Source of the DNA: Bugula neritina | Taxonomy: Eukaryota; Animalia; Bryozoa | DNA: 64,000 bases | Assembly (NCBI GenBank): GCA_964035545.1 | Contig: OZ037765.1 | Coordinates: 4,722,698-4,786,697 of the forward strand | Direction: 5' to 3' | Part shown: in pieces, positions 11,801 through 57,499 of the stretch | Layout: each line of letters starts with the position of its first letter | How positions within the stretch are numbered: position 1 is the first letter of the stretch | Position numbers and translations under genes: made by a program | Notes under the pieces: model-generated | Told to the model about the DNA's origin: nothing | Database searches by the model: none | Seen by the model: the letters and a program-made list of their open reading frames with translations, nothing else

Positions 11801-14800
11801 ATTTGGATATGATAAGAGACCTTCTGTCCAGCAGTGTAGGCAATGTATATTCTCACAAAGTGTCAGCTTTGGATACGGTCATCGAGCACATGAAACACTC
11901 GGAGGAGGCAGTGTGTGAGTCAGCGTTACGCTGCCTTGCTGAACTGGCAGATGCTGCCGGCAGCAAACTAGATGAAGTCAGTCAACCATTGTTAGACATG
12001 GCCACCAATTCTGAGTCTACTGCTATAAGGTAATTTGTACTGTCAGTGTGGTACTGGTGGTAGTACTAGTAGCAGTAGTACTAGTACTAGTAGTAGCGGT
12101 AGTAGTAGTAGTAATACTAGTGGTACTAGTGGTAGGAGTGGTAGTAGTAGTAGTAGCAGTAGTACTCATAGAAAAATTAGTTAAGGTATTAGAAGTCTTG
12201 GTAGTCATAGTAACAGCTGCAGAGTTTTCAATTATGATAGCGGCATTATTTACTAGGCATGAAACTCAGTAGTAGGAGTTGTCTTCTGCCGTCAGGTCAC
12301 CACTCTAATGTGTTTTGTATGTAGAAATACGTCCAGCCTTTGCCTAGCAGCTTTCTGTAAGCACAATGAAGAGGCCAGAGATGAAGTGGTATTTAAAGCC
12401 CTTCGCTCACGTCTCGTAGAGGTTCAGACATTGGAGTTGTCTACTCTGAATATTCTAGATGCTATAGTCGCACAATGCAGCTCTGATGTACGTCTGTATG
12501 TGCTAACACAGCTACTTATCTCCTTTGAACAGTGTCCACCAGGTAAAGTAACCTTTGTCTGCAGAAACCTTTGTTTCCAGTATTTATAATTGAAGCTAAA
12601 TGTCGAAACTACTCAACAAATCAAAGTAATATATTGTTTTGGAATTCATCGAAAGCTATTATTTGCATGAGGTTGTTGGTAACTGAGTGACCATGATAGT
12701 TTTTTTGTATAAATGCGTGAATAGGGTAAATATTTACTTGCAAAATACTGAGGTATTGTCCACTAGCAGGCTTTCTGTATTTTTCCTTGTTGAACAAGAA
12801 ATTATTTCAAATAAAAGGTGGTTTTTACTTTCAGTTTTGTTTGTTGAATTATTTGACGATATTTTCAGATGAATACTAAACCCTGTAAGCTTCAATGCTA
12901 GTTCATTTCTATGATTTCTGTTGTTTCATTTCTTTTTTTTGTGTGTGGAAGGAACCCCCACCGATCACTAGAAATGAAATATAGCTTTTGTTTTGGTCCA
13001 ATATGAATTAAATTTTGCATTAGAATTGCAATTTGCTACTTCAATTTATAAAGCATTTATGAAATTAGAGTTGTCTTCCTTTGTTGTAGATAATAATGTC
13101 CTCACGGATGGAATACTTTCTAGCATACTCTGTGCTTTGTCCTCTCCACTTAAATTAGACTCGAGCATCTTAACGTCATTCATGCAGACGTGTTTTGAAA
13201 TAAAATTGCCAGAAATTGCAGACTCTACTAGAATGCTGATGAGTGACATCATCATGCAGATTGTAAACTTCACTGACAAAAGGTAGATCAGGGCAAACAA
13301 TAACGTTGGCTAAACTAATATGTTGATGTAGCCAAAAGATCTAAACTGCATGTGTTTGAACCTGTGGCTATAAAACAGAAATATTCATACAAAAATGTAA
13401 ATTGTTTAGCAATATTTATTGCAGGCATCTATAATATCAGTTGCTAATTTATAGGAGTTGCAACTTTAACAACTTAGTGCGTCAGCTTCATCATAAATAT
13501 TTAAGTTCTGATTCTGTTTGTAGTTATCTGCCCTCCATAGCCGAGTCAGCTTTGACAGCGTTGAATACTCTTCCGTATAATGTGACAGCTTTACAGTCGG
13601 TGCTGTGTTCTCTACCTCATGGGGTATGTTGGTGAATCTTCAATTAGTCCACTTATCACATCCTTTATAGCTTACAATACAGCGAGTCACCTAAGTTCTG
13701 AAATTTTGCCAGTTATATTCCTTATATAAAATATGAAATCAACGTATGTGGACGGAATGTTACACATTGTGTGTTTGACCAGGTACTGGATGATACTCAG
13801 CTGTTAGATGTTTTCCAACCGCTAACTTCTCAGTCACCATCACCTCTCATGCGGCTGTCAGCGTGTAAAATCTGTGCATCAGTCATTAATAAAAGCACTA
13901 AAAGTAAGTCACTCAGTCTCTGGACACACTCATCTACAAAAACCCATTTACCTATAACACGGGCTTTTCAATGATAAGAGGGAGTAACTCCTCAATGTGT
14001 TTTCTCATTGTCTAAAATTTCACTCTTCTATTTTTATTAATTGTTTAAATTTTAAAATTGAGATGTCAAAAGTTATTTTATGAGAGTTATCTCTCTACAA
14101 AGTACACTTTTATTAAACCTTATAATGCACTCTCTGATTGTAGCTGAAAACCTGTTGAAAGATATTCTTTCAGTATTCGACTCCCCCACAGTTAATACCT
14201 TACCATTATGTTTTTGGACTACCAAAGCCTTAGTTCTTAGAAATCACCATCTATCACAGGGATGCGTGTCTAAGGTAGGCCGTACCAGCATTGAACCTAG
14301 CAGTTGTTCTGGGTATTAGCTATCTGGGCTACTTAGTAGTTACTACAGTTTTACAACTGTTTAAGAAAGAAAGCATGCAACCTCTTGTACGTTGAATACA
14401 ACTGCACTGATTTAAACTATAGAGCCGAAAATTTATCTGCAATTTGTCTTCTCTTGTTTTTCTTGTCGAAGTTTCAAACTTACAAACTTATATTACACTA
14501 TCACTACTTATATTACACTATCACTACTTATATTACACTATCACTACTTATATTACACTACCACTGCTTATATTACACTATCACTACTTATATTACACTA
14601 TCACTACTTATATTACACTATCACTACTTATATTACACTATCACTACTTATATTACACTACCACTACTTATATTACACTATTACTACTTATATTACACTA
14701 TCACTACTTATATTACACTATCACTACTTATATTACACTACCACTACTTATATTACACTATTACTACTTATATTACACTATCACTACTTATATTACACTA

Positions 14801-17800
14801 TCACTACTTATATTACACTATCACTACTTATATTACACTATCACTGCTTATATTATACTATCACTACTTATATTACACTACCACTGCTTATATTACACTA
14901 TCACTACTTATATTACACTATCACTACTTATATTACACTATCACTACTTATATTACACTATCACTGCTTATATTATACTATCACTACTTATATTACACTA
15001 CCACTGCTTATATTACACTATCACTACTTATATTACACTATCACTACTTATATTACACTATCACTACCTATATTACACTATCACTACTTATATTACACTA
15101 TCACTACTTATATTACACTACCACTACTTATATTACACTATCACTACTTATATTACACTATCACTACTTATATTACACTATCACTACTTATATTACACTA
15201 TCACTACTTATATTACACTATCACTACCTATATTACACTATCACTACTTATATTACACTATCACTGCTTATATTACACTATCACTACTTATATTACACTA
15301 TCACTGCTTATATTACACTATCACTGCTTATATTACACTATCACTACTTATATTACACTATCACTACTTATATTACACTATCACTACTTATATTACACTA
15401 TCACTACTTATATTACACTATCACTGCTTATATTACACTATCACTACTTATATTACACTATCACTACTTATATTACACTATCACTACTCACTTATATTAC
15501 ACAGGTGGTGAGCTGGCTAAGAAATCCTATGCTATCAGCTGATGTAGCTCGAGGATTTGAAGTTATACTGAAAGATTACAGGGATGTATTGAGCAGTAAA
15601 CAACATCCCAACATTAGGTTGATGTATAAACAAAGGCTATTTATGTTGGTGTTTCCTGTCCTTCATGAGATGTCCTCCTCCATTGAACAGGGTAAATAAG
15701 TTGCTGTATCTTTGAATACAAAAAGCTTAGTGGTTGAATTAATTATTGTTGAAGTCACTAGAAAGGTAAAGAACAGTTTTGGTCGCTGAGATAGTCAAAG
15801 TAGTATGCAAAGATTAGCTGGTTTTCTCCTGCAACTAAGATCAGATGCATTTAATCATGGGAAAGCAGGGAAAACAGAAACGCTTTGTATTGTGGCTGAA
15901 TTGCAGTGAGCACAGAGTATGGAGAGCTGATGTTAGTCTGTATGATCAGAGACCATTTATATGAGACATTGTTATACTCTTTGCTAATTTGTAGAGCTGG
16001 TAGCTAATGTACACATAGCAGTGACGAACTTAATCAAATATATACCTAAACAAGTGGCATCTACAGAAAAGCAAAAGGTATGCCATAACTATTCCACAGT
16101 GTAAAGTGTATCCTGGGGTTGTATACAGGGTGTTTGTGGTGGCATGTTTGTTAAGCCAGAGTAGAAATATTGTGAAGAAGTTGAAAGATTATGCTGTCAA
16201 GAAATTAACAACAAAGCAGCCAATAAAACTGGGTTAAAGTACAGATACTACGAACTTATTTACTTTGCTGCTAATAATAAATACCAATTTGTTGAACCCT
16301 TCTGGACCAAAATCATGTGCTAAATTAAACTGAGGAAGTTTGAAATAACTTTTTGTTATAATCTATAAAAGCGAGCATTACTTCCCTTACTATATTTGTA
16401 GTCCGAACTAGGGTTAAAGGTTAAGTTTAATTCTACTTTCAACATGCTTATAAAAGTAGTTCTCCTTTGCTAATTTTAACTGTTCATCCAAATGTTGAAG
16501 TTGTATGCCCTCTTCAGAGTCCAATTGTGATCTAATAAAATAGTATCTGTATTCAAAGAGCTTCAACTTTGACTGTAGTTACTATGATGTGTAACACATA
16601 ACTTTATGTTTAAACAGCTGATGACGCTGTTAGTGAAACTACTCCAGTCTGAAGACATCGAGGTGCTACAACAAACTCTACAGTTGATAGATGCTGACTC
16701 CGACAGCGGTCTATTAGAGCAGCATGTGGATACTCTACTGCCAATCCTAATTAGACTGAGCATTTGCTCCCCTAGCATGGTAGGTATATACTGCAATATG
16801 CTCCCCTAGCATGGTAGGTATATACTGCAATATGCTCTTCTAGCATGGTAGGTATAGACTGCTATATGCTCCCCTAGTATGGTAGGTATAGACTGCTATA
16901 TGCCCCTTTAGTGTAGTAGGTATAGACTGTTATATGCTCCTCTAGTATGGTAGGTATAAACTGCTATATGCTCCTCTAGTATGGTAAATATAGACTGCTA
17001 TATGCTCCCCTAGCATGGTAGGTATAGACTGTTATATGCTCCCCTAGCATGGCAGGTATAGACTGTTAGATGCTCCTCTAGTATGGTAGGTATAGACTGC
17101 TATATACCCCTCTAGTATGGTAGGTATAGACTGTTAGATGCTCCTCTAGCATGGTAGGTATAGACTGCTATATGCTCCTCTAGTATAGTAGGTATAGACT
17201 GCCATATGCTCCTCTAGTATGGTAGGTATAAATAGACTTGTGTAAAACACTAACAGATACATAAAATGCAGAAATTGACCCACTAATGATTTTTGTTTGC
17301 TATTTTTGAAATAGAAATAACAAGTTACTAAAATTACTCAATGAATTGCTAGCTTTATTTAATAAAACCATACGATTTGTAACTGACTCATCTTTCAAAC
17401 AAGTTCTTCGTTTCTCAACATACCTGCATACTATTACTATCCACTGCTACTAACTAACTGTGTTTGCAGCAAGTACGCATCTCCTCCCTGAAGTGTCTAG
17501 CCACCATGTCTAAACTGACCACCCTCCTCATCGTACCTCACATGAACTCCGTCATCAAGCAACTCCTTCCTGCCCTTGATGATAAGAAACGTCTAGTCAG
17601 AAAAGAAGCTGTCAAAACTAGAAATATTTGGTAAGATTTTATCATTACACTCTCCTATTTCCTCACTTCGTCATCAACTTAATGTTTTCATTAATATTAA
17701 GGTGCAGTAGGTTCATTTCTTGTTGGTCGCCTTGTGCCCTTTTTTAAAATGCACAAATGTGGATATTGTTGTTATATAAAAGACACTTTAAGCTGAATTC

Positions 17801-17972
17801 ACCAAACTGTATGTGGGTGTGTAGTGTAATAAACTACTTTCACGTTTTCAAGTATCCAAAAATCTAGGTCTATTTCAATATTAACAATCAATTTATTCCA
17901 TGTTTGTTACTTTAGTAGTTGTGTGTTTTCAATTCTAGGTGCATGGTTAGAGATGGACACGAGTCTCACTGA
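5838..17972 (+). CDS. MMS19: MMS19 (CIA targeting complex HEAT-repeat scaffold), 21 exons, ~935 aa: 5838-5907, 6827-6875, 7081-7264, 7704-7848, 8167-8292, 8427-8488, 9290-9451, 9787-9945, 10754-10811, 11284-11438, 11782-12029, 12325-12542, 13090-13282, 13524-13623, 13783-13903, 14144-14274, 15505-15691, 15995-16077, 16618-16779, 17470-17630, 17939-17972
   Basis: Hallmark motifs DGEKDPRNLL, EELFEVTACYFPVDFTPP, LMYKQRLF and LDDKKRLVRKEAV; all introns GT-AG with compatible phases; the spliced 2808 nt is open. Confidence 0.93.
12048..12170. repeat. (GTA/GTG)n low-complexity tract in MMS19 intron 11; homologous tracts at 37895-38100 and 41820-42040
   Basis: Visible trinucleotide repeat carried along with each MMS19 duplication. 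Confidence 0.9.
14487..15502. repeat. 20-bp minisatellite (CTTATATTACACTATCACTA)n, ~50 copies, running up to the exon 17 acceptor
   Basis: Directly visible tandem array. Confidence 0.98.
16766..17230. repeat. 34-bp minisatellite (GCTCCCCTAGCATG|GTAGGTATAGACTGCTATAT)n, ~13 copies, spanning the exon 19 donor
   Basis: Directly visible; the first unit overlaps the last 14 nt of exon 19. Confidence 0.95.
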
Positions 17973-18589
17973 AGAGGATCTTTCTAATTGTTACCCAATT
18001 ACAAATGCAAGCTTAATTTTACTCCACATCAAAGCTTTTAACCATCATCAATATTTTAAAGTGATGCTCGACTTTAAGCTAATACGTTGGATGAACAAAT
18101 GTATTGACTTGGATAAAGTAAAAACTCATAAATGGCATGGCTACCTCCAAACAGAAGCAACTACTGCTTCCAGTAAAATTAGGTTACCACTAATAAACCC
18201 TAAAATTGCTTCACCCACTTGATCTGTGCCTAATTTATATTTATAATGTTGACATTATCTTGGGCCTAAAAATTTTTGAAAACATTCACACGTATAAAAC
18301 ATTAGAACAAATTTTCCAATTACTATTTTAGAAAACGAAGTGTCGGAAATGTTGAATAGTTAAAACTTTTTATTAGCAAAACTGAATTTTCAACTATAAA
18401 ACTTATTAATCCAAATTATGAGGCTCTACACTCATAAAATAAAATTATGATACTAAAAGAAATCTTAAAATGAGAATTTCTAGTGAAAGGAGCTCCTGGT
18501 ATAAAAAATATGTTAAATTTACTGTGAGAGCACAGTATACAAATTTAGTCAAATGCCAACAAATTGAGAAATTTAAGGAAGTAAGTTGG

Positions 18590-19145
18590 CAAAATGATGC
18601 ATCATAAGCCTTCTCCACGTTCCCGGTTTTCTGTTTCCTTTAACTTCCATCTCATGCATTCTGCTGATACCATCTTCTTTCTTTCTTCTACATATAAGTC
18701 GGAAGTCCGAACCACTGCAGCCTTCTTTTCATCAGTTCTAACACATTCATTACTTTCACTTCTTGCCTTATGCTTTTATTGGTCTTGTGTTCTTCGAGAG
18801 TAATTCCTAGGCAGTAACACGGCATTCTCATCTCCTACACTAGCTTTTTTCGAAAGGTAATCGGTCACTGGTCATGTTTCAGCTTTGTACAGTAGCACCT
18901 GTCGTATCACTGTCTTGTAAATGAGCACCTTTAGTTTCTTTGGAACTTTCTGGTCACATAAAATATCGGTCAGCTCCCTCCATTTATCCCAGGCTCTACC
19001 AATGCGCACTTGTACTTCTGTCCTGCATCCTCCCTCCTGGTGGATTGTAGTTCTCAGGTATTTGAATGTGACTTTTTGAGGCAAAGTGGCATGTGCAGAG
19101 CTTTCATATTCCTTTAATTTGATGTCATCACTGTCTTCTTTTGGT
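18590..19145 (-). mobile_element. Degraded RTE-like LINE ORF2 3' fragment; shorter copies at ~45466-45735, 49111-49378, 52290-52565, 55163-55345
   Basis: FKYL..IHQEGGCRTEVQVRIGRAWDKWRELTDILCDQKVPKKLKVLIYKTVIRQVLLYKAET resembles the post-RT region of RTE LINEs. Confidence 0.75.
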
Positions 19146-21995: not shown

Positions 21996-22288
21996 CCATT
22001 AAAAGCATAACAAATGAAATTATTTTTCAAAAGTATATGGAATGAGTGGAAAACCATATTTTATATGTCTTATTTATGTATATGCTACAAAATATGCAAC
22101 CTGCAGCAATTATTTGGACTTAATTGTGTAATAACTCATAGGTAGGCATTTTGAATTTATATAGAGTATATTTTTGAACATTACTAATACTGTGACCCTC
22201 AGCTCAAACTAAAGTTTACAATGTGGCCCTCGCCACACGAATATTTCTTTTCAGTGGCCGGTGGTCTGAAAAGGTTGGACACCCCTGG

Positions 22289-22535
22289 CAGGGGTGGGCA
22301 ACTTGGGCCTCCAGGGCCACTTTCAGCCCTTTGCCCATTTTTCATTAGGCCCTTTTAATACTTAAGATAAGTAAAATCTGTCATCATTATTCTGATTAGC
22401 CCAGCATAGGTTTGGTGACAACTGACAAGTTACTTTATTATATTAAATGATATTTTTATGTGTTTTTATGAGTCAGCCCTTCGTTTTGGCTGACTCCTTA
22501 ACTTGGCCCCGAGCAAATAGAGTTGCCCACCCGGT
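22289..22535. mobile_element. hAT (Charlie-like) MITE, preceded by the right end of a second one (...GGTTGGACACCCCTG at 22273-22287)
   Basis: Left TIR CAGGGGTGGGCAAC and degenerate right TIR GTTGCCCACCCGG. Confidence 0.6.
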
Positions 22536-22846
22536 CAGCTAGTTAACTTTGATAATTGCAATGAGCTACAGTCCAATGGAAAATTGGTCGTTGTGGGTAC
22601 GGAATTCCTATTGGTTAAAGGCTTAATTACGCGTTCAGCGCGGGCAAATAAAGGTAGCTCGCAAGCCGCATTCTCAGTTCAGTTTCCTGTCAGTTTCAGT
22701 AACCAGCGTGCTTGAAGTTAAAGTTAATTTAAAGTCACTTTTCTCTCTTTGAGCTTGTACAAGCATCTCTACTGCTACTGCACCATTGATCGATCTACTA
22801 GAAACATTTATTTTTAGAACATTCAACATAAAATTAAATCACCTAG

Positions 22847-25800
22847 ATGTCGTTTGTTGGAAAATCCCTTAGCGAACCTACTCATACTGATAGTGATACT
22901 CATACTCATACTGATAGTGATACTCATCCTCATAGCCAGGAAGATTTTTTGGAATTGGAAGTTCTAAAAGTAAAACTTAAAGGTAAGCGTGAGGCTCCGA
23001 CTGAGTCTGAGTGAGAGCTAAACAGTAAATGCCAAATAAGTGTTTAATGTTGTTATATTGAGTACTGGGGGTTTTCAACTACTAAGTACCTAATATAACA
23101 CAGGGTATGCATACAATTAGAATATTCTACATGTGTATAACTATAACGCGTTGATAGTTGGTATCACACTTACCGGTATTATTCTTCTCTTCAGTCACAT
23201 CTGCTTACGACGGACTCTAGTGTACAAGAGATCTGGAATCCTGTACCAAAGCTGCCACGTTTAGACAGAAGGTTCTCTCATTGCTTACTTCTTGTAGCCA
23301 GAGCTCCGTCACTCAACATAAAAGGTAAGGGTACGAAAGTGATAAGTATCTTATAGCTAAAGAGCAAAGTGCTATAATCCTTAGGCTAGAAGTCCTGTTG
23401 CGAAACATCATATATGTGGAAGTATACTTTTAGGGCTAATGTTGTACCATCTCCAATAATTAGTTGTATGTCCTGTATCATGGTGTATAACCTTGTAAGT
23501 GTGTGTCTATTTAATGTTACTGCTATTCTATATAGTAGGCATACACTATGTATGGAAGAAAAGATATATTATAAATGGGGAAAAGATAGAATACATGGAA
23601 GTATTCAATACAAAACAATATTAAGCTCTAACTAAGGTTGCAGGGAAGCAGGATGCTATATCTGTAGTATATTATATTGTAGTGGTATAGCATACAAAAT
23701 GTCAAGTATGAAATAATACTTGAATACATCTATAGCATCCTCCCCAATTTAGAGAAAGACACCTCCGGTGGCTTATGCTTGTTGAAAGCATAAACAATTA
23801 AGCATTACTACTCCGAAATAAAAAAGGAAGAAAAACCTTTCACAATAAAATGAGTAAAATTTGAAAATTATATATACTAGCTGTTATATAGGCCTATATG
23901 TATTCTATTAGTACCAGTGAGTTCATCGATTAGAGTGAGTATTTTTTTTTTATTTCTGGTCACATAATCTTTTTTTTTTTCTCACTCATTTTTTTACATT
24001 GTTCCCTTTTTTTGTAACCATATTTTCATTATTTTTTTTTGATGAACTATATCTGTTGATGAAATAAAAAAAAAAACAAGACTTTAGCTATAAGTAAACA
24101 TTTACTAAAAATACACTAATTATGAATATTATAAACATAAGTCACAGGAGGTGGTGATAACAATCGACTCCGCATTTTATCCAACTTTGAATATTTAAAA
24201 ATTTCGCTTGATTTGATTCAATTTTCCCAATACAGAGCTTACTTAATTTTATTTTAATCAAAAGTCAATTTGATTTCTGCAATTTTTAGTAAGTTTGTTT
24301 TATGAGAAGCCAAAACTGTAGAAGATGTTAACCTGTAATGCTAAAAAAATGTCAAAGTACTCCCCCCTGTGAACAACAGGAAAACTCCTGTGTTCCATTG
24401 AAAAACTTGATTATTAATATGGCAGTAAATATTAGTATATCTGGTATATCTGCATGGTTATGTAAAGTAATGAATCGGGTGTCAATATGGTTATTATGTA
24501 TGTAAGTGTGAAGTAGATAAGCTACTCAATGCTGCTACTAGTACTGGGTATGTCGGCTTCTAGTCATTGCAGTTTCGGATAGAGGGGGCGATATTGCTGA
24601 ATTGAGGATGCAGGCGAAGGAGCACTAGGTGTTGGTCTAGTGTCCACTTCTACCATATCTACGAATTCTGTGAAGCTAGTCTGATCGGAAGCGTCCAGGA
24701 ACCCATCCTGTTCTCCTGCCTCAACATCATTGTCAGATGTGTCCTCTGTGTCCTCAATGTCGATAGCTGCTACAATATTTCTCCTTCGCTGGCAACAACG
24801 ATTGTATAGAAAAATACCTAGCAATGCAATTGACAATATGGTGACTAAACAGTTGGATATCAAAGTCCACAATTCAAACGCACTCGCCACATGCCCTCCA
24901 AACAGGAAAGCAAACCAAGAGTTCCCTATCAAGTTCTCTTTCGACTCAATGACATTGTTTTTAAAGGAAACATGTCTGTTGGATTGAATTCCCATCGCTT
25001 CTAGAACTTGTTTCTGTCTTGACAAAGTAGCTAGCAATTCATTCAAGTCAGAGTGTGCTGACAGGTCAGGCCAACTTAGGTGATGGGCACGGCTGTAGAT
25101 TGTTTCATGGATTTTAAGAGGGTGTGCACCTAGAGAAATTCCAGGTAAACTCAGGTCTTCTCCAAGATTAACCTTTTCTACGGTACCATCTTGGTTGTAC
25201 CAAAACAATTCATCGTTCATCCGGAATGCAATTGCTGGTTTGGATGTGCACGGTGCTTGTGCACTTTGTGTGTGAATAATGTTATCCATTGGATCCATGA
25301 AACCAGTGTGCGTTTCCCCACTGAGTTCCAATTCTACTGGAATAAACATGGTGCAATTATTCTCTGACATAGGGAGCATTTTGTAGCTTTTTATTTCCGT
25401 ACATGGGTAAATCTTTAGAAAACCAGGACCAGACTCAGCTCGGATATTGCTTACCCCTAGTAAGTATCTGGCTGTACTCGTCGCATGTTGCTCTGCGAGT
25501 AGAGCTACGGTTTTGAGGACTTGAACTATGTTTTTACAGGTATATTGATAAGATGTCCAATACAGTTTTGATTCGATTCCGAGAATCTGTACTTCTAGGG
25601 ACTGAGCTATAGCGTCCATGACAGCATATGCTGGACTCAAACGACTCCTGCGGTCCCATTCTAGTCCAGGAGCCTTTTCAACGTGTTGCGTTAGAGTGGT
25701 GTTGAACAGGTCTGAAGTATTAAAAACAACAAGCAAACCTTGGTCCGACATTGTGCCTGACTTGCCGTCACAAGTGGTAATATTCTCAAAGGGGTTCTTG

Positions 25801-28800
25801 CGGAAAGTTAAAGCCAAGTCTTCTTGATCACTAACAAAATAGCCATCAAGGAAACTTCCTTCAACTTCATACCACTCCTCGTATGGACAATTAGCTTCTC
25901 GTTCTGTTTCCCATATTAGCATAGATTGATCTCTGAGTTTGCAGTAGCCATCAGAGTATGAGTTGCAATGGGAAACGTCACCTGCGGTGCTTTCAAAAGA
26001 ACTTTTCCCAAATGTCTTGTATACCGAAGCTGAAATATAACTGCATTGTTTCACTTCAAAGTGATGCCACTTGCAGCACCAAACATAAGCTAATCCTGCA
26101 GCTTTGTTTTTTGTAGTGTATGCACCATCACTTCCAGATAGGGCACCTTCATTGCATCTCTTCTCTAGTACCATATTTTCGCATTCGCTGCGGCTAACTG
26201 GCAGTGACCGGTGATATTCCTTCTTAGTTTTCACGTCCGTAAAAAGTGATATCTGTGTGGAGATGGTGTACAGCATTTTAGTGCATTGATAGGCTGCTGT
26301 ACGCCATTCCACTACATTTTTTCTGTAAACCGTAGCCTTCACAGGGGTTGGCGCATGAGTACTATTGGGTCTTGGAGTCGGATCACATTGGAAGTCATGA
26401 TTCAATTGATGAATAGATGGTCGCCTCACTTCACTGGAACTACACACCAAAGGATACCTGGCATACTGCGGCTGTGCCTTCTGTGTAGTGTTAAAAACAG
26501 TCGTGTTAGACAATGCATTCACTACTGCTGTCAACACTAACACAGATAGTATGCTGGTGAGAGTCTGACTGGCCACAGCTGGCCCCAGGAGAGCTGTGCC
26601 TTTTACTGGTGCAGTGGCTGCGGCTACACTGATCAGCATACACATTGCCACTAGTGCCAACATGTAGGTTTGCATTGTTGACAAACCAGTCCCCCGTCCT
26701 CTGCTTCTTTTTCTTTTGGGTTTCCTGTCAGAGATGAATTCATTTGGAGAGGTTTGAATTGAATTCACTGATTCCTCAGCTATGTCCTCTTGAGGAGGCT
26801 GAGTCAGAAGGGCCTCGGCAAATTCATCACCCTCTAGGCTCTCAATAGCATTGATGTGTCGCGTCCCACTGTAATCTTTGGTTTTGCTCTGTTGACCAGA
26901 GCACTGATTACGTTGTGGTTGCTGGTGAGAGGGTGGTTGAGGTGGGCAGGAAGGAAGTTGTGCTGGTGGGTGAGGGTACCGGGGAGAAGATTGGTAGTAG
27001 GGTTGAGGCTTCCCCTGGTTGAAGTATCTACCTCGTCCTCTTCCTCGGTTTGTTGTTCCTCTCCATCCACCACCTCTACCTCTGTCATTTCTCATTCCAA
27101 ACCCTTGACTCTGTTGTTGGTGTTGTTGGTATTGGGGCTGCCGTTGCTCTTTAGCTTGGTTGTGCACTAAAGTTTTCAACCATTCTACCTCTTTTTCTAG
27201 CTTTTGAACTGAGTCAGATGAGTTTACCGTTGCCACTATTCTCTGGGTGTCATCTCCCATCTGATGTTCTACATTTTCTTGCTTAAGTGCAAGTTTCCTA
27301 GCACTTTCTACAGTTGTGGGGTTTTTAGAGAGGAGGTGCCTCTTCAATCCTGGTCGTAGACCAGTAATAAAAGCAGATACTAGCACGCTATCTTTATGTT
27401 CAAGGGAGAGGTCAGGCCATTGGGTGTTGGCAGCTTCCATAAATTCGCCATAATATTCTAGTACGCTTTTCTTCCCCATCTTTATGTTCCACACTAATTT
27501 GCTTGAGTCGACAAACTCTTTGCATAACCTCTCTCGAAGACTCTTGTAACTAATCGCTAGCGTGGGCTCCTTTGCAACTACTGCCTTGAAAACCTGATAG
27601 GCACCACCTTCCAGGGCATCTGGAAGGTTTTGTGCCATCTGATAATCACTAAGCTGCAGTTTTTTTATGTTCTTTTCCCATTTTTCAAGAAATAACTCCC
27701 AGCTGGAACCAGGAGTTCCTTTAAATTTGATGTTCTGTGGAGGCTCTCTCAGAATAATAGGTGAGTTGTGAAATTTTCCCGCATCAGCTACTCCAATGCT
27801 GTGTTCAGATGGTGTTTCAGCTAAGCTTTGGATTGGTGAGTTATGAGGTTTTGGTGATCGTTGATTAGCAATGTGGGGATAACTTGATGTGAATTCCAAG
27901 GTAGTATTTGTAGGTGTAGGTGCTGGTTGTTCATGAAGTTGTCTTCTACTTGTTTTTCGTGGCGTAACTGGTGGAGGTAGGCGAGTTCGAGGCGGCGGAG
28001 TTGGTTCCGGCATGACATTTGCATCATTGGTAGATCTTTGACCCAAGGTGAGATTCCGAAAATCTTCGAGTTGTTGTTGTAACTTTTGTTGCTGGATTGT
28101 GAGCCGATGCTCTCTTTCCAGGAACTCATTTTGCTGTTGTTCTTGAACAGCGCTCTGTTCCTCATAGAACTTTCTCCGTTGGATTTCAAAACTTTCCTCC
28201 ATCTCGTACCGTCTCCTTGCTTGCTCTTGTCTTTCTACCTCGAGGTGCTGAAACTGTTCCGCCAGTTCATGCTCCTTCGTTTGTTGATACTGTCGCCATT
28301 GTTCTTGCTCATATCTCCATACATCTTTTTGCTTTTCCTGCTCCTCTACAAGTTTCTTGTATTCTAACTCGTAGAACTTTGCAATTTCATGCGGGTTCAT
28401 TGGGAGTCGTCTTTCGGACAACTCAACCAATGCGTGAGCTCCTTCTCTTGTCGAATCTTGTGAGAGAGTAGGAGTGTCTAAGCCCGTGGCTACATTTGTG
28501 GCACTACCTGGTGTCGTAATAGTACTAACACTAGTGGTGACTGTAGTTGTGGCGGTGGTCACGGTTCCGGTACTCATATTGTTGGTGCGTGACTTATAAT
28601 TTCCGACTAATAAGTGAGTTCAGCAGTACTTGTTTGCAATGTTATTAATGTTTATACTTTGTGCTAATGTACAATTATGTGTCTATTTCTTACTCAAGGA
28701 TATGTGTGCATGTACTATCCTGTATATATGACAAGGTGTGGCTTGCAGTTAAATACTTTAAGTTAGTGGAAGTCTTTTATTATGACCTCTGTACACTACA

Positions 28801-31800
28801 AATTATTCAGTTATTTCTGCTATTCAAGCCTAGTCTAAAATCTAAATTTAGTCAACCACAGTAATTAATTAGTTTGATATTCGTACTATGTAGTAAGGCG
28901 GTTGTTGTACTTAGGTACTATAATACGTAATAGGACAATGCTTTGTACTATAATACACTGACTGCACTGCAGGTGTCGCAATACTTAGTACTGCAATGTA
29001 ATATTCGTATAATGTGTAAATATATAATATACAATTCAGTGATGCTCTGATTGGCAATGCACTGCAAAGTAAATTGTAGGTAATTATAAGAAATTATGTT
29101 TAGGACAAGACTATTAATTATAGTACTTGTCAGCGCCTATACCTCAGCAGACAGTCGTAGACTGAATCTGTTTGGAATTTATTAACTGCTAAATAAGGAG
29201 CGTGTTAACCTTATCTGCAGCTCACCCAATTATACAACTAAATTAGCCTATTAGCAAAGGGAGGTAATTCACTTCTACAATTAATTATCTCTAAGCTAAA
29301 AAAAATTAAAACTGGCTTGTTTTCACCTTTTAAGCAGCAGAGAAAAATTAAACATATAGGAATTCTCGCTCTATTACTATTAGTCTATGGATGTATATTG
29401 TTTTGGGGTAATATGTAAAAGTTGATCCTTTTTGGCTTCAATTAATATTTTCTCAGTGCGGCCTAGCACTTCTACGGTCTACCCACGAGCAAAATATGAG
29501 CTCAGCGAATATAAAACCTACAGGAAAATATTAGTGAACAGCCAAATGAGGCCTGATCAACACTATCTAAAGTATTAATATAATTTTATCCCCTGGCGCA
29601 CGGGGTGGTTAACCAAGTGTCAAGAGCTATTAATATAAAGCTGGACACAATATTTAACAAGGGCAACCTTGGGCAAAAGCCAGTGCCTCCTCCAAAATGT
29701 TATATTGAGTACTGGGGGTTTTCAACTACTAAGTACCTAATATAACACAGGGTATGCATACAATTAGAATATTCTACATGTGTATAACTACAACGCGTTG
29801 ATAGTTGGTATCACACTTACCGGTATTATTCTTCTCTTCAGTCACATCTGCTTACGACGGACTCTAGTGTACAAGAGATCTGGAATCCTGTACCAAAGCT
29901 GCCACGTTTAGACAGAAGGTTCTCTCATTGCTTACTTCTTGTAGCCAGAGCTCCGTCACTCAACATAAAAGGTAAGGGTACGAAAGTGATAAGTATCTTA
30001 TAGCTAAAGAGCAAAGTGCTATAATCCTTAGGCTAGAAGTCCTGTTGCGAAACATCATATATGTGGAAGTATACTTTTAGGGCTAATGTTGTACCATCTC
30101 CAATAATTAGTTGTATGTCCTGTATCATGGTGTATAACCTTGTAAGTGTGTGTCTATTTAATGTTACTGCTATTCTATATAGTAGGCATACACTATGTAT
30201 GGAAGAAAAGATATATTATAAATGGGGAAAAGATAGAATACATGGAAGTATTCAATACAAAACAATATTAAGCTCTAACTAAGGTTGCAGGGAAGCAGGA
30301 TGCTATATCTGTAGTATATTATATTGTAGTGGTATAGCATACAAAATGTCAAGTATGAAATAATACTTGAATACATCTATAGCAATGTTAATCTCAAAAG
30401 TTAATAATATTTCAAAGTTTAGTATAAAGTAGAAATAGAATTACTATTAGAAGTAAACTTTTAGTTCTATGTTCTAACGAATAAATATTTATATAATAAA
30501 TATAATAACTCATAAATCATAAGACCTAGTCATAAGTCATAAATGATAATGATAAATATAATCGTTATCAATTTATTCTTTACTCTTTAGGCTAAGCTTT
30601 AACTTTAAGTTTATTATATTATTCATTATTATTTTGATAATCATTATGATTATAGTTATAATTTACATTATCATTATCACTTTATGCATTGTCATTGTGA
30701 TTCAAGATTTAAATCACCATCATCAATTAATATGAATAATATTATGACGATTATCAGTATCACTATGTCTTATACTTATAGTAATAGTTATAATTTATAA
30801 ATAAAAATAAAATATAAGTTAAACTTGATATTATCGTGTTTTCAATACCATTTATTAATTATCAAAGAAAAAGTGAAATTCAATATCATCAACATGAACA
30901 CTACTAGTACTACTAGTAACTGTAAGAAGCATCGTAAAGTTAACCAGAAAAATAAAGTAACATATGATAATAATGTAACTATCACTATGACCAATAAATA
31001 TTATATTTTATTTTGTTACAATTATTAATATTACTAATAGTAATAGTATTGGTATGGCACTTCAACTCATAAAATCACTACTGGATACAATGATTGCTGT
31101 AAAATTAAATTTATTATGGTTATTAATATTAGTATTACTATAACACTAAATATTACATGACTAAGTATATGACTACTACTAGTACTAGGTATAAGTATTA
31201 TCGCTACACTATGAGGATGTATATCAAACTGCTGCTTTTAATATTAGTATTACTTATACTATTGGTAATAATAGTATTGGTATGATTTGCAGCATGGGTA
31301 TCCTGCATTATTTTTAGATATGGCATTTCCATTTTTAATGCATAATGCGTATAGTATCAGTATGTTTGCATTTTCACAGATGTTGAAGAGAGCACCAATC
31401 ATGTTCTTGGCCTAGTAGAATCTCTTGGGTAAGAATTTTTTTATAATCTTTTAATAATATTTTAAAATTTCATACTTTTTTTATTAATATTGTCATAACT
31501 TGTAAATAAAGATATTACTGGTAACATAAATACTGTTGTTAACCTATTTATTTCAAGCTCAAACCTTATTTAATTATTTATTTGCAGCCCTTCCCTGACA
31601 TCATTAGATACAGAAACTCGTGCAAGTGCTACACAATTATTGGCTGACGATATAAGCAATTCGAAAGGGTTGAGGCGGAACGACCTTGAACCATTAGCAG
31701 ATTTCTTCTGTGACAGAATCAAAGATCATCACTCTATTGTTCCACATGTTCTTACAGCATTCTCTACCCTGGTAACATAATGTTATAATTAGCATATCTT

Positions 31801-40330: not shown

Positions 40331-43300
40331 ATCAATTTGGTGCGATTTGTTCATGTTTTTTTATGTTTATTCATGCAGGCAGACTGCTGTAAAGTATTCA
40401 ACTCTGAACACCTTAGACCTTTTACCAATATTATGACACAGCAATTGTTACGGGAAGCCATGCTCTCAAGTAGAACTGAGGAGCTGGCACTAGAGGCTAT
40501 CTCTGCCATCTGCAGCTGTTTAGCCAAACCGGTAGGTAATTGTTGGGACATGAGCTTGGAAAGCTTGTTGAATAATTACAGCTTTACTTGTATTATTACA
40601 GCTATGTTAGCTACATTATGGTTTTTTTTTCTATTGGGATGCAATGATTTTGGCTACTGCAAAATAGCTATCTTTTTAAACTGTTATGAAAGCTATTCAT
40701 TCTCTTTTCTTTCAGTCTGCGATAATAAACATACATCTATATATTGAAACACAGCAGTAATCATAAAAATATTCTTATGATTTAATTTTTTTCATCAAGC
40801 AGTCACTGAATTTTCGTTGCATTATTTAAATTGATGCTTATATGGTTGTGGTTTCTAAAAACGAGAGAAAAATTAGAAGCTTGGAAACGTAGCGATTAAA
40901 AGATATATCTTTATTCTCAGTCTTTAGTCCGCCATTTTTAAACTTTCTTAGACTTGAAACTTGCAACATATAAGGAGTTATAATATACAGTAAAATGTAG
41001 CTGCAGGTTAATGTACATTATGCTTTTCTCTATTGTGATACAATGATTCTCGCTACTGCAAAATAGCTGACTTTGTAGAACGTATAAAACTCATCACTTT
41101 TCATTATTCATTCTCTTTTCTTTCAGTCTGTGGTAATGAGCATACATCTATATATTAAAACACAGCAGTAATATGAAAATAGTTTTATGTTTTACCTTCT
41201 TCATCAAGTAGTGACTGCATTTTCGTTGCATATTATGCAAATTGATGCTTATATGGTTGTGGTTTCTAACAAGCTTGGAAACATAGCGATTAAAAGATAT
41301 ATCTGCATTCTCAGTTGAGTTTTATGATGGTAAGTCTGTCGTGTGCTATTTTTAAATTTTCTTAGACTTGAAACTAGTGAAATAAAAGTTAGTCTTGGAA
41401 AGAAATTATGTTTGATTTACTGCTCACAAAATTTATTTGCGTGTTGTAAGGTAGACGTTAAATTGTTTCAAATTTCCTTGTTGTGACTACTAAGTTGTTG
41501 AACCTGTTTTGTTGGATCCTCTCTGTTATGTTACAGATTGATGGAGTCACTGTGTACACAGATGTTGATGACTTCTGTACATCATAAGAGATCTTTTGTC
41601 CAGCAGTGTAGGCAATGTATATTCTCACAAAGTGTCAGCTTTGGATACGGTCATCGAGCATATGAGACACTCCAAGGAGGCAGTGTGTGAGTCAGCGTTA
41701 CGCTGCCTTGCTGAACTGGCAGATGCTGCCGGCAGCAAACTATATGAAGTCACGCAGCCATTGTTAGACATGGCCACCAATTCTGAGTCTACTGCTCTAA
41801 GGTAATTTGTACTGTCAGTGTGGTACTGATGATAGTACTGGTAGCAGTAGTACTAGTGGTAGGAGTAATAGTGGTAGTGGTAGTAGTAGTAATACTAGTG
41901 GTAGTAGTAGTTGTGGTGGTAGTCATAGTAATAGTAATAGCGGTAGTGGTAGTAGCGGAAGCAACAGCAGTACTAGCAGCAGTAGTAATAATAGTAGTAC
42001 TAGCAGTAAAATTAGTTAAGGTAGTAGAAGTCTTATTAGTCATAGGACCAGCTGCAGAATTTTAATTCATGATAGCGGCATCATTTACTAGGCATGAAAC
42101 TCAGTAGTAGGAGTTGTCTTCTGCCGCCAGGTCACTACTCTAATGTGTTTTGTATGTAGAAATACGTCCAGCCTTTGCCTAGCTGCTCTCTGTAAGCACA
42201 ATGAAGAGGCCAGAGATGAAGTGATATATAAAGCCCTTCGCTCACCTCTCGTAGAGGTTCATACATTGGAGTTGTCTACTCTGAATATTCTAGATGCTAT
42301 AGTCGCACAATGCAGCTCTGATGTACGTCTGTATGTGCTAACGCAGCTACACATCTCCTTTGAACAGTGTCCACCAGGTAAAATCTTGTTTTACCTCATT
42401 TGTTTTCTCCTGCAACTAAATTAAACTGAGGAAGCTTAAAATAACTTTTTGTTATAATCAACAAAACTGAGTGTTACTTCCCTCACTATATTTGTAGTCC
42501 TCTAGGGTTAAAGGATAAGTTCAATTCTACTTTCAACATGCTTATAAAAGTAGTTCTCCTTTGCTAATTTTAACTGTTCATCCAAATGTTGAAGTTGTAT
42601 GCCCTCTTCAGAGTTCAATTGTAAATGAATAATATTTAACTGTTCAATTTAATAAAACCATACAGTTTGTAACTGATTCATCTTTCAAATAAGTTCTTCG
42701 TTTTTCAACATACCTGCTGTGTAGTTGTTGTGAGCTATTGGTATGAAATACTGATAACTACAGGTTATATTGGTAAGCATACTCATCATTCTATTACTGT
42801 CCACTGCTACTAACTAACTGTTTGCAGCAAGTACGCATCTCCTCACTGAAGTGTCTAGCCACCATGTCTAAACTGACCACCCTCCTCATCGTACCTCACA
42901 TGAACTCTGTCATCAAGCAACTCCTTCCTGCCCTTGATGATAAGAAACGTCTAGTCAGAAAAGAAGCTGTCAAAACTAGAAATATTTGGTAAGATTTTAT
43001 CATTACACTCTCCTATTTCCCCACTTCGTCATCAACTTAATGTTTTCATTAATATTGAGGTGCAGTAGGTTCATTTCTTGTTGGTCGCCTTGTGCTCTTT
43101 TTTAAAATGCACAAATATGGATATTGTTGTTATATAAAAGACACTTTAAGCTGAATTTACCAAACTGTATGTGGGTGTGTAGTGTAATAAACTATTTTCA
43201 CGTTTCCAAGTATCTAAAAATCTAGGTCTATTTCAATATTAACAATCAATTTATTCCATGTTTGTTACTTTAGTAGTTGTGTGTTTTCAATTCTAGGTGC

Positions 43301-43345
43301 ATGGTTAGAGATGGAAATGAATCTCACTGAAGAGAATTTTTCTAA
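40330..43345 (+). pseudogene. MMS19 copy 3, internally deleted: exon 8, exon 9 fused into exon 11, exon 12, then exons 20-21
   Basis: Highly similar to copy 1 including introns; no 5' exons; deletion junctions at ~41584 and ~42380-42420. Confidence 0.88.
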
Positions 43346-43637
43346 TTGTTACCAAATTAATACTTTGGGTGAACAAATGTACTGACTTTGGTAAAGTAAA
43401 AACTCATAAACGGCATGGCTACCTCCAAACAGAAGCAACTACTGCTTCCAGTAAAATTACGTTACCACTAATAAACCCTAAAATTGCTTCACCCACTTGA
43501 TCTGTGCCTAATTTATTTATAATTATGACATTATCTTGGGCCTAAAATTTTTTGAAAACACATTCACAAGTATAAAACATTAGAACAAAGTTTTCCAATT
43601 ACTATTTTAGAAAACGAAGTGTCGGAAATGTTGAGTA

Positions 43638-45355
43638 CCGTAAAATGGGGTAACATTGGCCGTTTTGAGACAAATTTTGGGTGTCATATGAAAGGATTAC
43701 AATATTCTTTAAAATTTTTGGATGCTAAATGAAGCTTATCAACATATGCACTAAATGAAAGAACCTTTTGCAGTTTGGGACTGCTAGATCTCCTGTGGTA
43801 TTAAAAAAAGTAGGTGGCCAAAGTTACCCTATTTTCGGGGTAACTTTGGCCGGTGTCGTTATTCTCCATGTAGCTAAAGTTAGCAGCACTTGGAGCTTTT
43901 TTAGCCAGTTAGAAATTAAAGAACAACATTATTCAACTTCATTACTACAAAAAAAAATTATTTTAGACAAAATGCAAGCTATAATAGTGTAATTATTGCA
44001 TTGAAACCACAGCTATTCGACGTACATTGTTATTAAGTGTAAAAACTTTTGTATATGTATAAAAAATCAGGTATTTTGCTGGCAACATTGAATAAATCAC
44101 TGTACAAGTTCAAATTTCATTGAATTTAATTTTAAATTCAAGTATGCCCTTTCAAACTATAGGCTGTAACAGTTGTCTGTAGATTTTTTAAATAATGCGT
44201 AATGTCTTCAGAATTAACTGTTGCCCATTCCGGTGCTATGTTTTGGCACAACCTGTGAGACAAGCTATCTTTATGTCTTGACATAAAACTGAGACTCCAG
44301 TGATCTTGAGGGTAGTTGCTTTTGAAATGTTGCACTCTTCTCTCACATTTGTCAAAATAGGTCTTGACTATTATTCGAAAGTCTGTTTTATCTAATGGAA
44401 AGCCCCATTGAGCCAGCTTTGTAGTAGGTATGGTCAACAATGGCTACCTCCTCTACTTGTGAAAACACAGTTTGGCGTCCAGGCTTCAGCTTGTGTCTTC
44501 ATGCGGCTCTGTTTTGTAGTGTTCCTTTAGTAATATCATATTTCTAGCCACTTCTTGTCAAGACTTTCCAGCTGCCAATTCTTGTGAATAAAGCAAAACC
44601 AATGATCTCCTCAGATATGCCATATCTTGGAGATATTACTTTTCTTTAATATTTTCTGAGTATAATTGTCTTGAAAAATACATTTTACAATGCATGGTCA
44701 AATTCTTAAATAAAAAAAAACATTAAACACAAAATTGCTGTCTGGGAACAAAAATGTATAATTCCCCATGTAATTATTTCATATTTCGGACTCTAAGTTG
44801 TTTCAAATATATAACTAGAGCATTGGGTATAGGTGAATCAAATGATTGTGCCTTTAGAGAGTAATGTACTATGTGTCTGAAGGAACAGAAAATTCGCAGC
44901 GCTGCCAGAAACCTACTTTGGAGTACCATTTAGTCATGGCCAAAGTTACCCCAAATTCGTCAAAAATTGTACACAGTGAATTCAAGACACATATTTTAAT
45001 TTTGAATTTCAATTTATTTACCTAAATTACAAATATCCTGGTTAAATACTTACCAAAGTTCTTTAATACAAAAAAGAAAATGAGTCCAGCTTTTCTAATG
45101 CCTTCAAATAAATTAAAGTTGGACAGCGCTGAAAATCTTGTTGTCAAACAGGAAATTGAAAATGGCTGACAGCAAGAAGCAGCAAATAAGTATATGAATT
45201 ATTTTTCAGGAATAGGATGCACCAATCTGCAGTCAGTGCATATATACAATTAAAATATCTTTAGACTTCATAGATATAGCACCAGCTACATTTTAAACAT
45301 TTTTTCCAAAGTGGCCAAAGTTACCCCAAGTGGCTAAAGTTACCCCATTTTACGG
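43638..45355 (-). mobile_element. Non-autonomous pogo-like (Tc1/mariner superfamily) DNA transposon
   Basis: TIR CCGTAAAATGGGGTAAC at both ends, TA TSD, repeated subterminal GGCCAAAGTTACCC motifs, CENP-B-type HTH remnant (WGFPL..W...FMSRH) at 44138-44440, no DDE domain. Confidence 0.88.
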
Positions 45356-45735
45356 TAGTTAAAACTTTTTATTAGCAAAACTGAATTTTCAGCTATAAAA
45401 CTTTTTAATCAAAATTCTGAGGCTCTACACTCATAAAATAAAAATTATGATACTAAAAGAAAGCGAAAGTCTGAACCTCTGCAGCCTTCTTTTCATCAGT
45501 TCTAACACATTCATTACTTTCACTTCTTGCCCTATGCTTTTATTATTTTTGTGTTCTTCGAGAGTAATTCCTAGGCAGTAACACGGCATTCTCATCTCCC
45601 ACACTAGCTTTTTTCGCAAGGTAATCAGTCACTGGCCATGTTTCAGCTTTGTACAGTAGCACCGGTCGTATCACTGTCTTGTAAATGAGCACCTTTTGTT
45701 TTTTTGGGACATTCTGGTCACATAAACATCACTGT

Positions 45736-47750
45736 TTATGCCAATGCTTTTGTTTTCACAATGCCTTGATGTGACTTGTGTATTTTTTGCAAAATTTCTG
45801 TTTGTTTTGACATTGATACTATCAGCTTTGAACCAGCAAATAGAAATTCATCACAAATTCTAATTTTATTACGCCATGGCCAATATTTTCTCTGAGCAAA
45901 ACTACATGATTTTTCATCTGGAGGCCATCTATTAATTACAATCAGTTTGAGTGCCTGTAATTCTCCGTCTTTTAAAACTGCTTGTTTGTATTTTACTTTA
46001 GCTTTATCAGAACAAAATATGACTTTAGGCAAATTTTTCATAGAAAGAAATTCAGCAACATTTACAAATGTCCCTACATTGGGCTAGGATGCTTTACTTA
46101 GCATATCTTTGTTCACCTGCCTGGGATCTAAACTAAGTCCTATTTGACTGTTGAGCTTTTTGTCATTACAGCGAGTGAACCCAAACCCAAAGTGTAAAAT
46201 TTTCAGACTGTCTAATGATTGTCGTGAGACTTAACTTAAACTCAGCTGCTTCTACAATAAAGAAACTGCAAAAATTAAAAACAGTATATATTATCGCGAT
46301 TATCGCTTTGCTCTCTAGCGCTGACTAGTGAGGAACAATGCATCAACCGTGAAAGATTAATTTTAGCATCGCCCATAGATAAGTGTTTGAGTTGAGTTAA
46401 ATCAAGCATCGTCAGGAAATAACTTGGTAGTTCTGCATAATTTTTCACACACAATCTCATTAGTTTTTTTCCAAATTCATTAACCTTCAGCTGGTTATAA
46501 CAGTCTTGAGAAAGAAAACTATTAGAGATATCGAGGACTTCTACATCATTTAAATTTTCTTCGATGGTGTCCAACCATGAATCGTAGTAGCACTAGTCGT
46601 ATTACTGTCTTGTAAATGAGCACCTTTTGTTTCTTTGGGACTTTCTGGTCACATAAACATCACTGTCTATGCCAATGCTTTTGTTTTCACAATGCCTTGA
46701 TGTGACTTGTGTACTTTTTTCAAAATTTCTGTTTGTTGTGACATTGGTACTATCAGCTTTGAACGAGCAAATAGAAATTCATCACAAAATCCAATTTTAT
46801 TACGCCATGGCCAATATTTTCTCCGAGCAAAACTACATGATTTTTCATCTGGAGGCCATCTATTAATTACAATCAGTTTGAGTGCCTGTAATTCTCTGTC
46901 TCTTAAAACTGCTTGTTTGTATTCTGCTTTAGCTTTATCAGAACAAAATATGACTTCAGGCAAATTTTCCATAAGAAGAAATTCAGCAACATTTACAAAT
47001 GTCCCTACATTGGGTTAGGATGCTTTATTTAGCATATTTTTGTTCACCTGCCTGGGATCTAAACTAAGTCCTATTTGATTGTTAGGCTTTTTGTCATTAC
47101 AGCGGGTGAACCCAAACCTGCAGGTTCATTGCATTTTTGAATAACTTCTAACTTTTCAAGTTCACCCAAGCTCTGTTTTTAGCTTTAGTTTTACATTTAT
47201 GGGAACAGGCCCACTACTGCCAACTACTGGCTTAGCCTCAGGTCTTAACAATTTTTCAAATTTTCAAATTGAACTGAAGAACTGCATGAAAAAAATTTAA
47301 CATTGCTACATGCTAATGTTATCATTAAACATGCAGGGTCCCTCATTAACATCTGTAGTAGCATCTGGTACTTGTACAGTGTTAGTTGTAGGTTTCGTTA
47401 TAGCTTCAGATCTACATACCTTAGGAAAGTGACTAAATTTGCCGCATTTGTTACATGATTTTCCATACGCTGAGCAGTGTCTCCTGCTGTGACTAGACCC
47501 GCAGCTATGGCAGTTGTTCATAATATCCATTGTATGCTTTTTTGGCTGAAAATTATTTGAGTAGCTCTTTTTTTTTATCGCATCTACATTTGCTGGTTGC
47601 TCTGGTGCAGCACTCGCAAGGTTTCTCTGTATTATCTCTTTGGCTCTCTTGCGTCAACTGCTCTTCTGTCAGTTGCTGTAGCTCAATTGACAGAGCCTTG
47701 TTTTTATCCCTGTCAGCAATCTGTATTTAATGTTATCATTTACCACATTG
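45736..47750 (-). mobile_element. Fragments of a Mag-like Ty3/gypsy element (integrase N-terminal region, gag zinc knuckles); recopied at 49379-50260, 52566-54003, 55489-56175, 57213-57497
   Basis: ELQALK..RWP..YWPWRN..LIVP..ILQKIHKSHQGIVKTKALA and CHSCGSSH..CSAYGKSCNKCGKFSHFAKVC. Confidence 0.82.
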
Positions 47751-54049: not shown

Positions 54050-54175
54050 CCATTGAACTGCACTATAGTATAGTTTAAAAACATCTACAGTGTTTCTTGC
54101 ATTTCTTCCTGATTTGCCACTTGTCCATTGTGTTTCCTGCAAGCATAGTATGTGTATTTTTTCTTCATCATACCT
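54050..54175 (-). mobile_element. LINE AP-endonuclease fragment (also ~47780-47910, 50300-50409)
   Basis: KIHILCLQETQW..GKS..AR...FKLYYS. Confidence 0.65.
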
Positions 54176-55052
54176 GCTAACAAGTGAAGGCAATGCAGCA
54201 ACCAAATCAATAGCCTTTTCTTCAGACGTGCTGATTATTCTTAAGCAAACTCTACTTCGAAATGTCAATCGAGGTACTGCCCATATAAGATGAATGTTTA
54301 AGTAAAGTCAAGCATCTCGGGCATATAACTTGGTAGTGATGAATTATTGTTTACACACCATCTTCTTAGCCTTTTTCCAATTCCATTAATTTTCTTCTGG
54401 CTGCTTAACCTTCTTGAGAATTACAAGGCCATTTATAAATATGATTTAAACTTTCTGTAGTTATGCCAACCCATGAATCATAATCATCAAAGGTCGCAAC
54501 AATTTGATGAGTGCTGGCGCAGATGTGCAAATTTGTGACAACATGCGTTCACTTATTGCAGTGCTTGGCAAATTTAAATACCTGAGATTTGGAAACTCTT
54601 TTGGACAGCGACAGCTCACGTTCATACATTGGAGTTGTCTACTCTGAATGTTCAGTATTCACAATCACTTTATTCCATGTTTGTTACTTTAGTAGTTGTG
54701 TGTTTTCAATTCTAGGTGCATGGTTAGAGATGGACATGAATCTCACTAAAGAGAATTTTTCTAATTGTTACCAAATTAATACTTTGGGTGAACAAATGTA
54801 TTGACTTGGATAAAGTAAAAACTCATAAATGGCATGGCTACCTCCAAACAGAAGCAACTACTGCTTTCAGTAAAACTAGGTTACCACTAGTAAACCCTAA
54901 AATTGCTTCACCCACTTGATCTGTGCCTAATTTATTTATAATTATGACAATATCTTGGGCCTAAAATTTTTTGAAAACATTCACTAGTACAAAACATTAG
55001 AACAAAGTTTTCCAATTACTATTTTAGAAACCGAAGTGTCGGAAATGTTGAG

Positions 55053-55058
55053 TAGGTA
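55053..55058. other. Transposon excision footprint TA-GG-TA
   Basis: Same site is TA at 49001 and TA-[element ending ...CGG]-TA at 43636-45357. Confidence 0.75.
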
Positions 55059-57212: not shown

Positions 57213-57499
57213 TACATGATTTTCCATACGCTGAGCAGTGTCTCCTTCGGTGACTAGACCCGCAGCTATGGCAGTTGTTTATAATATCCATTGTTTGCTT
57301 TTTAAGCTGAAAATTGTTTGAGTATTTTTTTTTCTTTACTGCAACTACATCTGCTGGTTGCTCTGGTGCAGCACTCGCAAGGTTTCCCTGTATTATCTCT
57401 TTGGCTCTCTTGCGTCAACTGCTCTTCTGTCCGTTGCTGTAGCTCAAATGACCGAGCCTTGTCCTTCATCCCTGTCAGCAATCTATATTTAATATTATA

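Follow-up and report, generated by a model that had tools for sequence, protein, structure and literature searches.

Among Ty3/gypsy retrotransposons, the closest described relatives of the element studied here carry an envelope gene (env) between gag and pol and are referred to below as GAG-ENV-POL elements. In nematode endogenous retroviruses, gag, env, pro and pol reportedly form one continuous open reading frame (ORF) that includes a nyamivirus-like glycoprotein. Env precedes pol in these viruses (Sacco et al. 2022, J Gen Virol 103:1739, as cited in PMC13524379), and GAG-ENV-POL elements with an Env of the herpesvirus glycoprotein B (gB) type are known from Nematoda, Bryozoa and Platyhelminthes (Chary and Hayashi, eLife 2026, PMC13524379). 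In Athila, whole multicopy families contain only gag and env and are under purifying selection (Marco and Marin 2008, PMC2410132). We analysed a 64,000-nucleotide stretch of Bugula neritina DNA (assembly GCA_964035545.1, contig OZ037765.1, positions 4,722,698 to 4,786,697), which we call the window. It holds a 7334-bp long terminal repeat (LTR) element at 23051–30384 on the reverse strand, as are its LTRs, replication signals and coding parts. Gag and a predicted class III Env are both encoded by this Ty3/gypsy-type element. Most probably it is one defective copy within a multicopy GAG-ENV-POL family, its pol having been removed by a deletion between two 14-nt repeats that lie immediately behind the Gag-Env stop codon. 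It thus adds a defective example to an already described group and is not a new kind of element.

The element and its Gag-Env reading frame

The element is bounded by two LTRs of 687 bp (5′ LTR, 29698–30384; 3′ LTR, 23051–23737), which have TG...CA ends and differ at one base, and by a 4-bp target-site duplication (left, 23047–23050; right, 30385–30388). The near-identical LTRs and the target duplication mark a young insertion, and the element is likely a recent copy. A primer-binding-like site (29683–29694) lies 3 nt inside the 5′ LTR, and the corresponding primer is presumably tRNA-Cys. The site matches at 11 of 12 positions a tRNA 3′ end that is classed as “others” in supplement 1 of PMC13524379. 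A polypurine tract (23738–23745) adjoins the 3′ LTR. An earlier sequence-only reading of this DNA had described a complete LTR architecture, and all of these structural hallmarks of Ty3/gypsy elements are indeed present. The LTRs and untranslated regions had no match in any of 10 related loci (described below), and tRNA and Rfam scans gave no matches.

The same reading had reported one uninterrupted ORF of 1337 amino acids without pol, which our searches confirm. The ORF occupies 24564–28577, and in the other frames the internal region has no stop-free run longer than 137 codons. When Pol sequences of 10 relatives were compared with the window by tblastn, no protease, reverse transcriptase (RT), RNase H or integrase was found in the element (in-element matches were no better than E 5.8); in a search confined to the element, none of the matches listed was better than E 0.37.

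Both folds that the sequence-only reading had anticipated, a retrotransposon capsid at residues ~280–440 and a class III fusogen at residues ~690–1260, were recovered in structural models. In the Gag half, Retrotrans_gag (PF03732) matches residues 321–409 with an E value of 3.7e-5, just above the Pfam cut-off. The model of residues 275–445 (27243–27755) has a predicted local distance difference test score (pLDDT) of 83.6, and the top nine rows of its Foldseek search are Arc, PNMA2, dArc1 and Ty3 capsids (best E 1.8e-3, none below 0.001). The domain match and the fold ranking together indicate a Ty3-type capsid. An Arg/Gly-rich, nucleocapsid-like stretch is located at 26988–27095. The CCHC knuckle, which is present in all 12 Gag-bearing relatives, is absent from the window protein. 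Because contigs of sequencing runs X1 and X6 cross the CCHC-less region without gaps, this absence seems to be a trait of the window element's family.

In the Env half, two hydrophobic segments (residues 637–658 and 672–690; 26508–26669) behind a basic stretch form a predicted internal Env signal. They are followed by the predicted class III ectodomain (24873–26507), a transmembrane helix (residues 1236–1259; 24801–24872) and a predicted cytosolic tail (24567–24791) with the late-domain-like motifs PSAP (residue 1317) and YPKL (residue 1333). The ectodomain model (residues 690–1265; pLDDT 73.5, predicted template modelling score 0.54) matched herpesvirus gB in the PDB with a best E value of 3.3e-21, although the TM-scores were only 0.25–0.46, the highest being those of prefusion forms. 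Among viral models, a nyamivirus glycoprotein was the best fold match (E 3.4e-29). At the sequence level, a PDB search with the window protein gave nothing below E 0.008 and no relevant match, and PF24664 (Monjiviricetes fusion protein) was above the cut-off in 4 of 15 relatives and did not match the window protein. According to these models, Gag and a predicted class III fusogen occupy one reading frame, and the predicted signal and transmembrane helix complete an Env of the kind that defines the GAG-ENV-POL errantiviruses of HSV/gB type (HSV, herpes simplex virus).

The errantiviruses of PMC13524379 share the Ty3/gypsy LTRs and the gB-type fold with the window family, and env is located between gag and pol in them. 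Domains I–II of the window Env are close to Bryozoa_Gymnolaemata_Cpal_errantivirus_4, 5 and 6 (supplement 2 of that paper), and 33 of the first 72 aligned residues, counted by eye, are identical to those of number 5. By itself this likeness would point to a probable bryozoan host, and it is this by-eye resemblance that bears on the bryozoan cysteine-bridge configuration C2b. The window copy differs from these errantiviruses in lacking pol. Since that study requires all three ORFs to be intact, the window copy is a defective derivative.

Relatives and the join behind the stop codon

A search with the Env region identified 15 related proteins among 7273 candidates. Gag and Env are in a single ORF in 12 of them, and the remaining three start behind Gag. 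In metagenome contigs, 80 pattern hits yielded 10 relatives (loci whose names begin with L) from five families, whereas 41 pattern hits in viral contigs yielded none. In all 10 loci, the Gag-Env ORF is followed by a single stop codon and a long in-frame ORF, which has 1289–1312 codons in the six complete loci and is truncated by the contig end in the other four. Pfam recognized protease, RT, RNase H and integrase, in that order, in each of the five downstream ORFs tested; the window copy lacks a pol with this Ty3/gypsy order. Pieces of LTR flank L007 and L010 on both sides. In all 10 loci, pol has its first Met inside or behind the protease, so that it would have no start of its own.

One relative, P0221, lacks the stop. 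With three cluster members, it is a continuous Gag-Env-Pol protein of 2602 residues. No stop separates its Env tail from the protease at residues 1081–1210, where PPSY and YPSL are kept. In P0015 and P0016, Env runs on into a protease-like stretch. Most relatives here thus have a stop between env and pol and differ in this respect from the nematode endogenous retroviruses, whereas P0221 is continuous. The order gag, env, pol was found in the 10 loci and in P0221, and for the window family 13 open codons and the branch points described below bear on it. A fused Gag-Env is therefore how GAG-ENV-POL elements normally begin, and pol loss is not what produced it. An in-frame excision of pol from between gag and env was considered and rejected, because the junction is common to the relatives, in which pol lies downstream.

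In the Env tree (16 rows), the window protein groups with P0002, P0003 and P0004 with support of 99/99, and pol is downstream in P0002 and P0004. Because the window Env is nested among pol-bearing families, the loss of pol appears to be derived. The window family's own pol was not identifiable among the 24 Pol proteins compared.

The Gag-Env ORF ends at a UGA-CUAG stop, behind which the frame stays open for 13 codons (24525–24566), the putative first codons of pol, before a stop at 24522–24524. A 14-nt overlap at 24526–24539, from both sides of which longer family members branch off, is the candidate deletion scar. We placed contigs of four sequencing runs on positions 23740–25000. The env-side contigs depart from the window at 24526 in all four runs, one of them continuing for 425 letters, and the 3′-side contigs depart at 24539 or 24540 in three runs, the fourth having no cover there. 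Contigs of run X4 end at the same two places. Among the contigs listed, the join was spanned only in run X1, by a 94-nt contig with no difference and a depth of 131. In this run, three exact flank contigs have depths of 118–121 and five internal gag-env contigs have depths of 569–630. A join at flank-like depth and an approximately five-fold depth of gag-env fit about five copies, one of which is short. Such an overlap is a typical trace of a deletion between short direct repeats, which either a jump of the reverse transcriptase or DNA repair is able to produce.

A one-off copy beside a longer parent, the case that the sequence-only reading had named against itself, is what these contigs indicate: longer copies in all four runs, and the short form in one, at single-locus depth. 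That reading had also held that a random deletion would hardly leave a seamless ORF. However, a deletion behind the stop codon leaves the Gag-Env ORF untouched. This ORF and the cis signals are retained, so the window copy probably arose when the reverse transcriptase jumped on its template, with a sibling's Pol then integrating the product, and it may still be able to make Gag-Env. Of the proposed structural-only, non-autonomous element, one part therefore stands: Gag and fusogen share one ORF, pol is absent, and movement would depend on Pol in trans. The other part does not, since the relatives carry pol downstream and a seamless ORF does not point to a specialised pol-less lineage. The suggested service to an env-less helper also falls away, as the likely helper carries the same env.

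Some points weigh against a single pol-deleted copy. The X1 contig that bridges the join extends only 7 letters past the overlap on one side, below the 31-letter criterion. Contig depth is not copy number, and X1 is possibly the window's own sample. That the missing stretch contained pol would follow from relatives at 39–53% Env identity. Further short copies are possible, as the evidence consists of run contigs and not of a whole genome.

Alternatively, the pol-less form could be a spreading non-autonomous subfamily that is copied by pol-bearing siblings and whose Gag-Env is kept by selection, which we regard as unlikely. Its cis signals and ORF are all intact and its LTRs almost identical, but any copy that is still young should have its ORF intact. 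Among the listed ORF differences, 17 of 24 are synonymous against 34% expected (p 2.4e-4); however, these rows are the tool's best-supported among hundreds, and the excess speaks for selection on the whole family, mostly its longer copies, not on the window copy. Athila provides a precedent. Like the window copy, its pol-less elements have LTRs, gag and env and are moved in trans (PMC2410132), but they are multicopy and have two ORFs, and their env-like gene is a plant one, whereas the window has one copy with one ORF and a class III fusogen. Several pol-less copies at different sites, as in Athila, were not seen, the join being present in one of four runs at single-locus depth (a rough measure, from run contigs only). 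When we searched the literature for invertebrate gag-env elements without pol, nothing but PMC13524379 and the Athila paper turned up.

It is improbable that the deletion took place in the chromosome after integration, or that the assembly collapsed the sequence between two short repeats. The 14-nt overlap suits DNA repair as well as a reverse-transcriptase jump, and the intact LTRs cannot discriminate between them; an assembly error is contradicted by the X1 contig, which spans the join without a difference. None of the observations counts against a post-insertion deletion, which would leave the verdict of a single pol-deleted copy unchanged. We give hardly any weight to a host-domesticated Gag-Env gene, similar to Arc or syncytin and retained for host use. 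The ORF is intact without pol and is covered by contigs of runs guessed to be RNA, but these contigs belong to the longer form, and the LTRs and the target duplication mark a young insertion. None of the 20 runs listed is registered as RNA. Moreover, right-flank contigs of runs X13 and X6 match only from the LTR end (30384) onward, which hints weakly that other individuals lack the insertion.

Surroundings of the element

The flanks (22202–23050 and about 30600–31330) have very high contig depth, in X1 in the thousands, and contain joints bypassing the element, which seems to be nested in a high-copy interspersed repeat. A short hexamer array is present in this flanking repeat at 22879–22934. 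Within the element, an X4 contig (a run guessed to be RNA) covers 28379–28554 at a depth of 122, compared with ~33 for env, and departs at 28554 beside a plus-strand GT, possibly as antisense spliced RNA. A plus-strand pyrimidine tract and an AG are located in the LTR at 29829–29841.

An integrase fragment of another Ty3/gypsy element lies at 60572–61604 on the reverse strand, with further long ORFs at 57596–59469. It was rejected as a helper, having 33–36% identity to the relatives' Pol compared with 46–83% among the relatives. Several long dispersed repeats of 90–100% identity, spaced at 2.5–6 kb, occupy 42819–57523, and a related stretch is found at 17461–18986. A 369-codon stop-free stretch lies at 51052–52158 (reverse strand), and minisatellite arrays with periods of 21, 20 and 34 are located at 3170–3814, 14326–15700 and 16694–17298.

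Predicted translation and budding of intact members

The stop codons between Gag-Env and pol were compared in the window and the five families of relatives. All six are followed by C, and five of the six contexts match known read-through motifs: UGA-CUA in the window, L007 and L008/L009, UAG-CAA-CUA in L010, and UGA-CAA-UCA in L001–L004. UGA-CUA is a type II and CAR-YYA a type I motif, and for Providence virus the listed context is UAG-CAA-CUA (PMC3542737), exactly the one found at 4445–4454 of L010. UGA-CUAG is described as a read-through-prone signal (PMC9841425).

The Env tails contain all three retroviral late-domain motifs (PMC8952333). Of 13 complete tails, 12 contain YPxL (0.23 expected in shuffled sequences), 8 contain P[TS]AP (0.17) and 5 contain PPxY (0.54), while the remainder of the tail is barely conserved. 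The count omits P0010, which is cut, and P0015 and P0016, whose tails have no such motif. Because the tails come from related proteins, these occurrences are not independent events. Alternatively, Env may use the motifs for endosomal sorting of the host type.

A [VI]-x-x-[VI] motif, defined post hoc once the alignment had been seen, is found repeatedly: behind the capsid, behind the nucleocapsid, ahead of the signal and, in 11 of the 13 tails, immediately after the membrane. In P0004 (L001–L004), a pre-signal spacer at residues 588–670 is repeated three times, with a VNQV motif in each copy. Val or Ile is reported at P2 and P2′ of Ty1 protease sites (PMC6952103), and the protease of murine leukaemia virus (MLV) trims the Env tail and thereby activates Env (PMC3265304). 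By analogy with these two systems, the motifs could be protease sites, a plausible but weak assignment.

Taken together, these features suggest how intact members might work. Ribosomes would translate Gag-Env, and the internal signal would thread Env into the endoplasmic reticulum, leaving Gag and the Env tail cytosolic. Occasional read-through of the stop would add protease, RT, RNase H and integrase to the Env tail, whose late-domain motifs would recruit the endosomal sorting complexes required for transport (ESCRT) for budding, and the protease would cleave Gag and the tail. GAG-ENV-POL elements may accordingly assemble their enveloped particle from a single polyprotein that spans the membrane. 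It would comprise Gag, the internal signal, the class III fusogen, a cytosolic tail with ESCRT late domains, and Pol towed by programmed read-through. We put this forward tentatively, with the chances slightly below even.

Three observations count against such a polyprotein. Two hydrophobic segments precede Env in the window protein and P0002 (one in the other relatives), which a simple one-pass signal does not explain; with both segments across the membrane, the ectodomain would end up on the wrong side. The sixth stop context, UGA-CGC, lowered read-through in PMC9841425. No stable RNA structure was found after any of the six stops (z −1.74 to 1.54).

MLV resembles the proposed steps in its stop read-through for pol, its late domain and its protease-trimmed Env tail (PMC3265304, PMC3542737). 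It differs in that read-through proceeds from gag, the late domain is in Gag p12 and a class I Env is made separately; the window element is not a member of this group. In the main text of PMC13524379 (figures outside the scope), read-through and frameshift, the word “fused”, late domains, ESCRT and budding, the cytoplasmic tail and the term “non-autonomous” are not mentioned. In our literature search, with most subscription papers outside its scope, Env-tail late domains or read-through in such elements were not found, and the hits on late domains, ESCRT or Env tails in retrotransposons were, judged by title, general retrovirus papers only.

The locus itself is ordinary, a defective copy of an env-bearing retrotransposon of a kind already published, and it carries a caution: a seamless Gag-Env ORF is what GAG-ENV-POL elements normally start with and does not signal a structural-only lineage. 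The signals at the family level outweigh the locus, as the conserved late-domain motifs in the tail and the read-through contexts before pol provide two testable predictions. If the polyprotein scheme is true, the budding signal and the packaging of the enzymes would depend on the Env tail and not on Gag, and a pol-deleted copy would be a ready-made defective-interfering genome that still gives capsid, fusogen and budding signal. The predictions bear on whether invertebrate env-bearing Ty3/gypsy elements leave cells.

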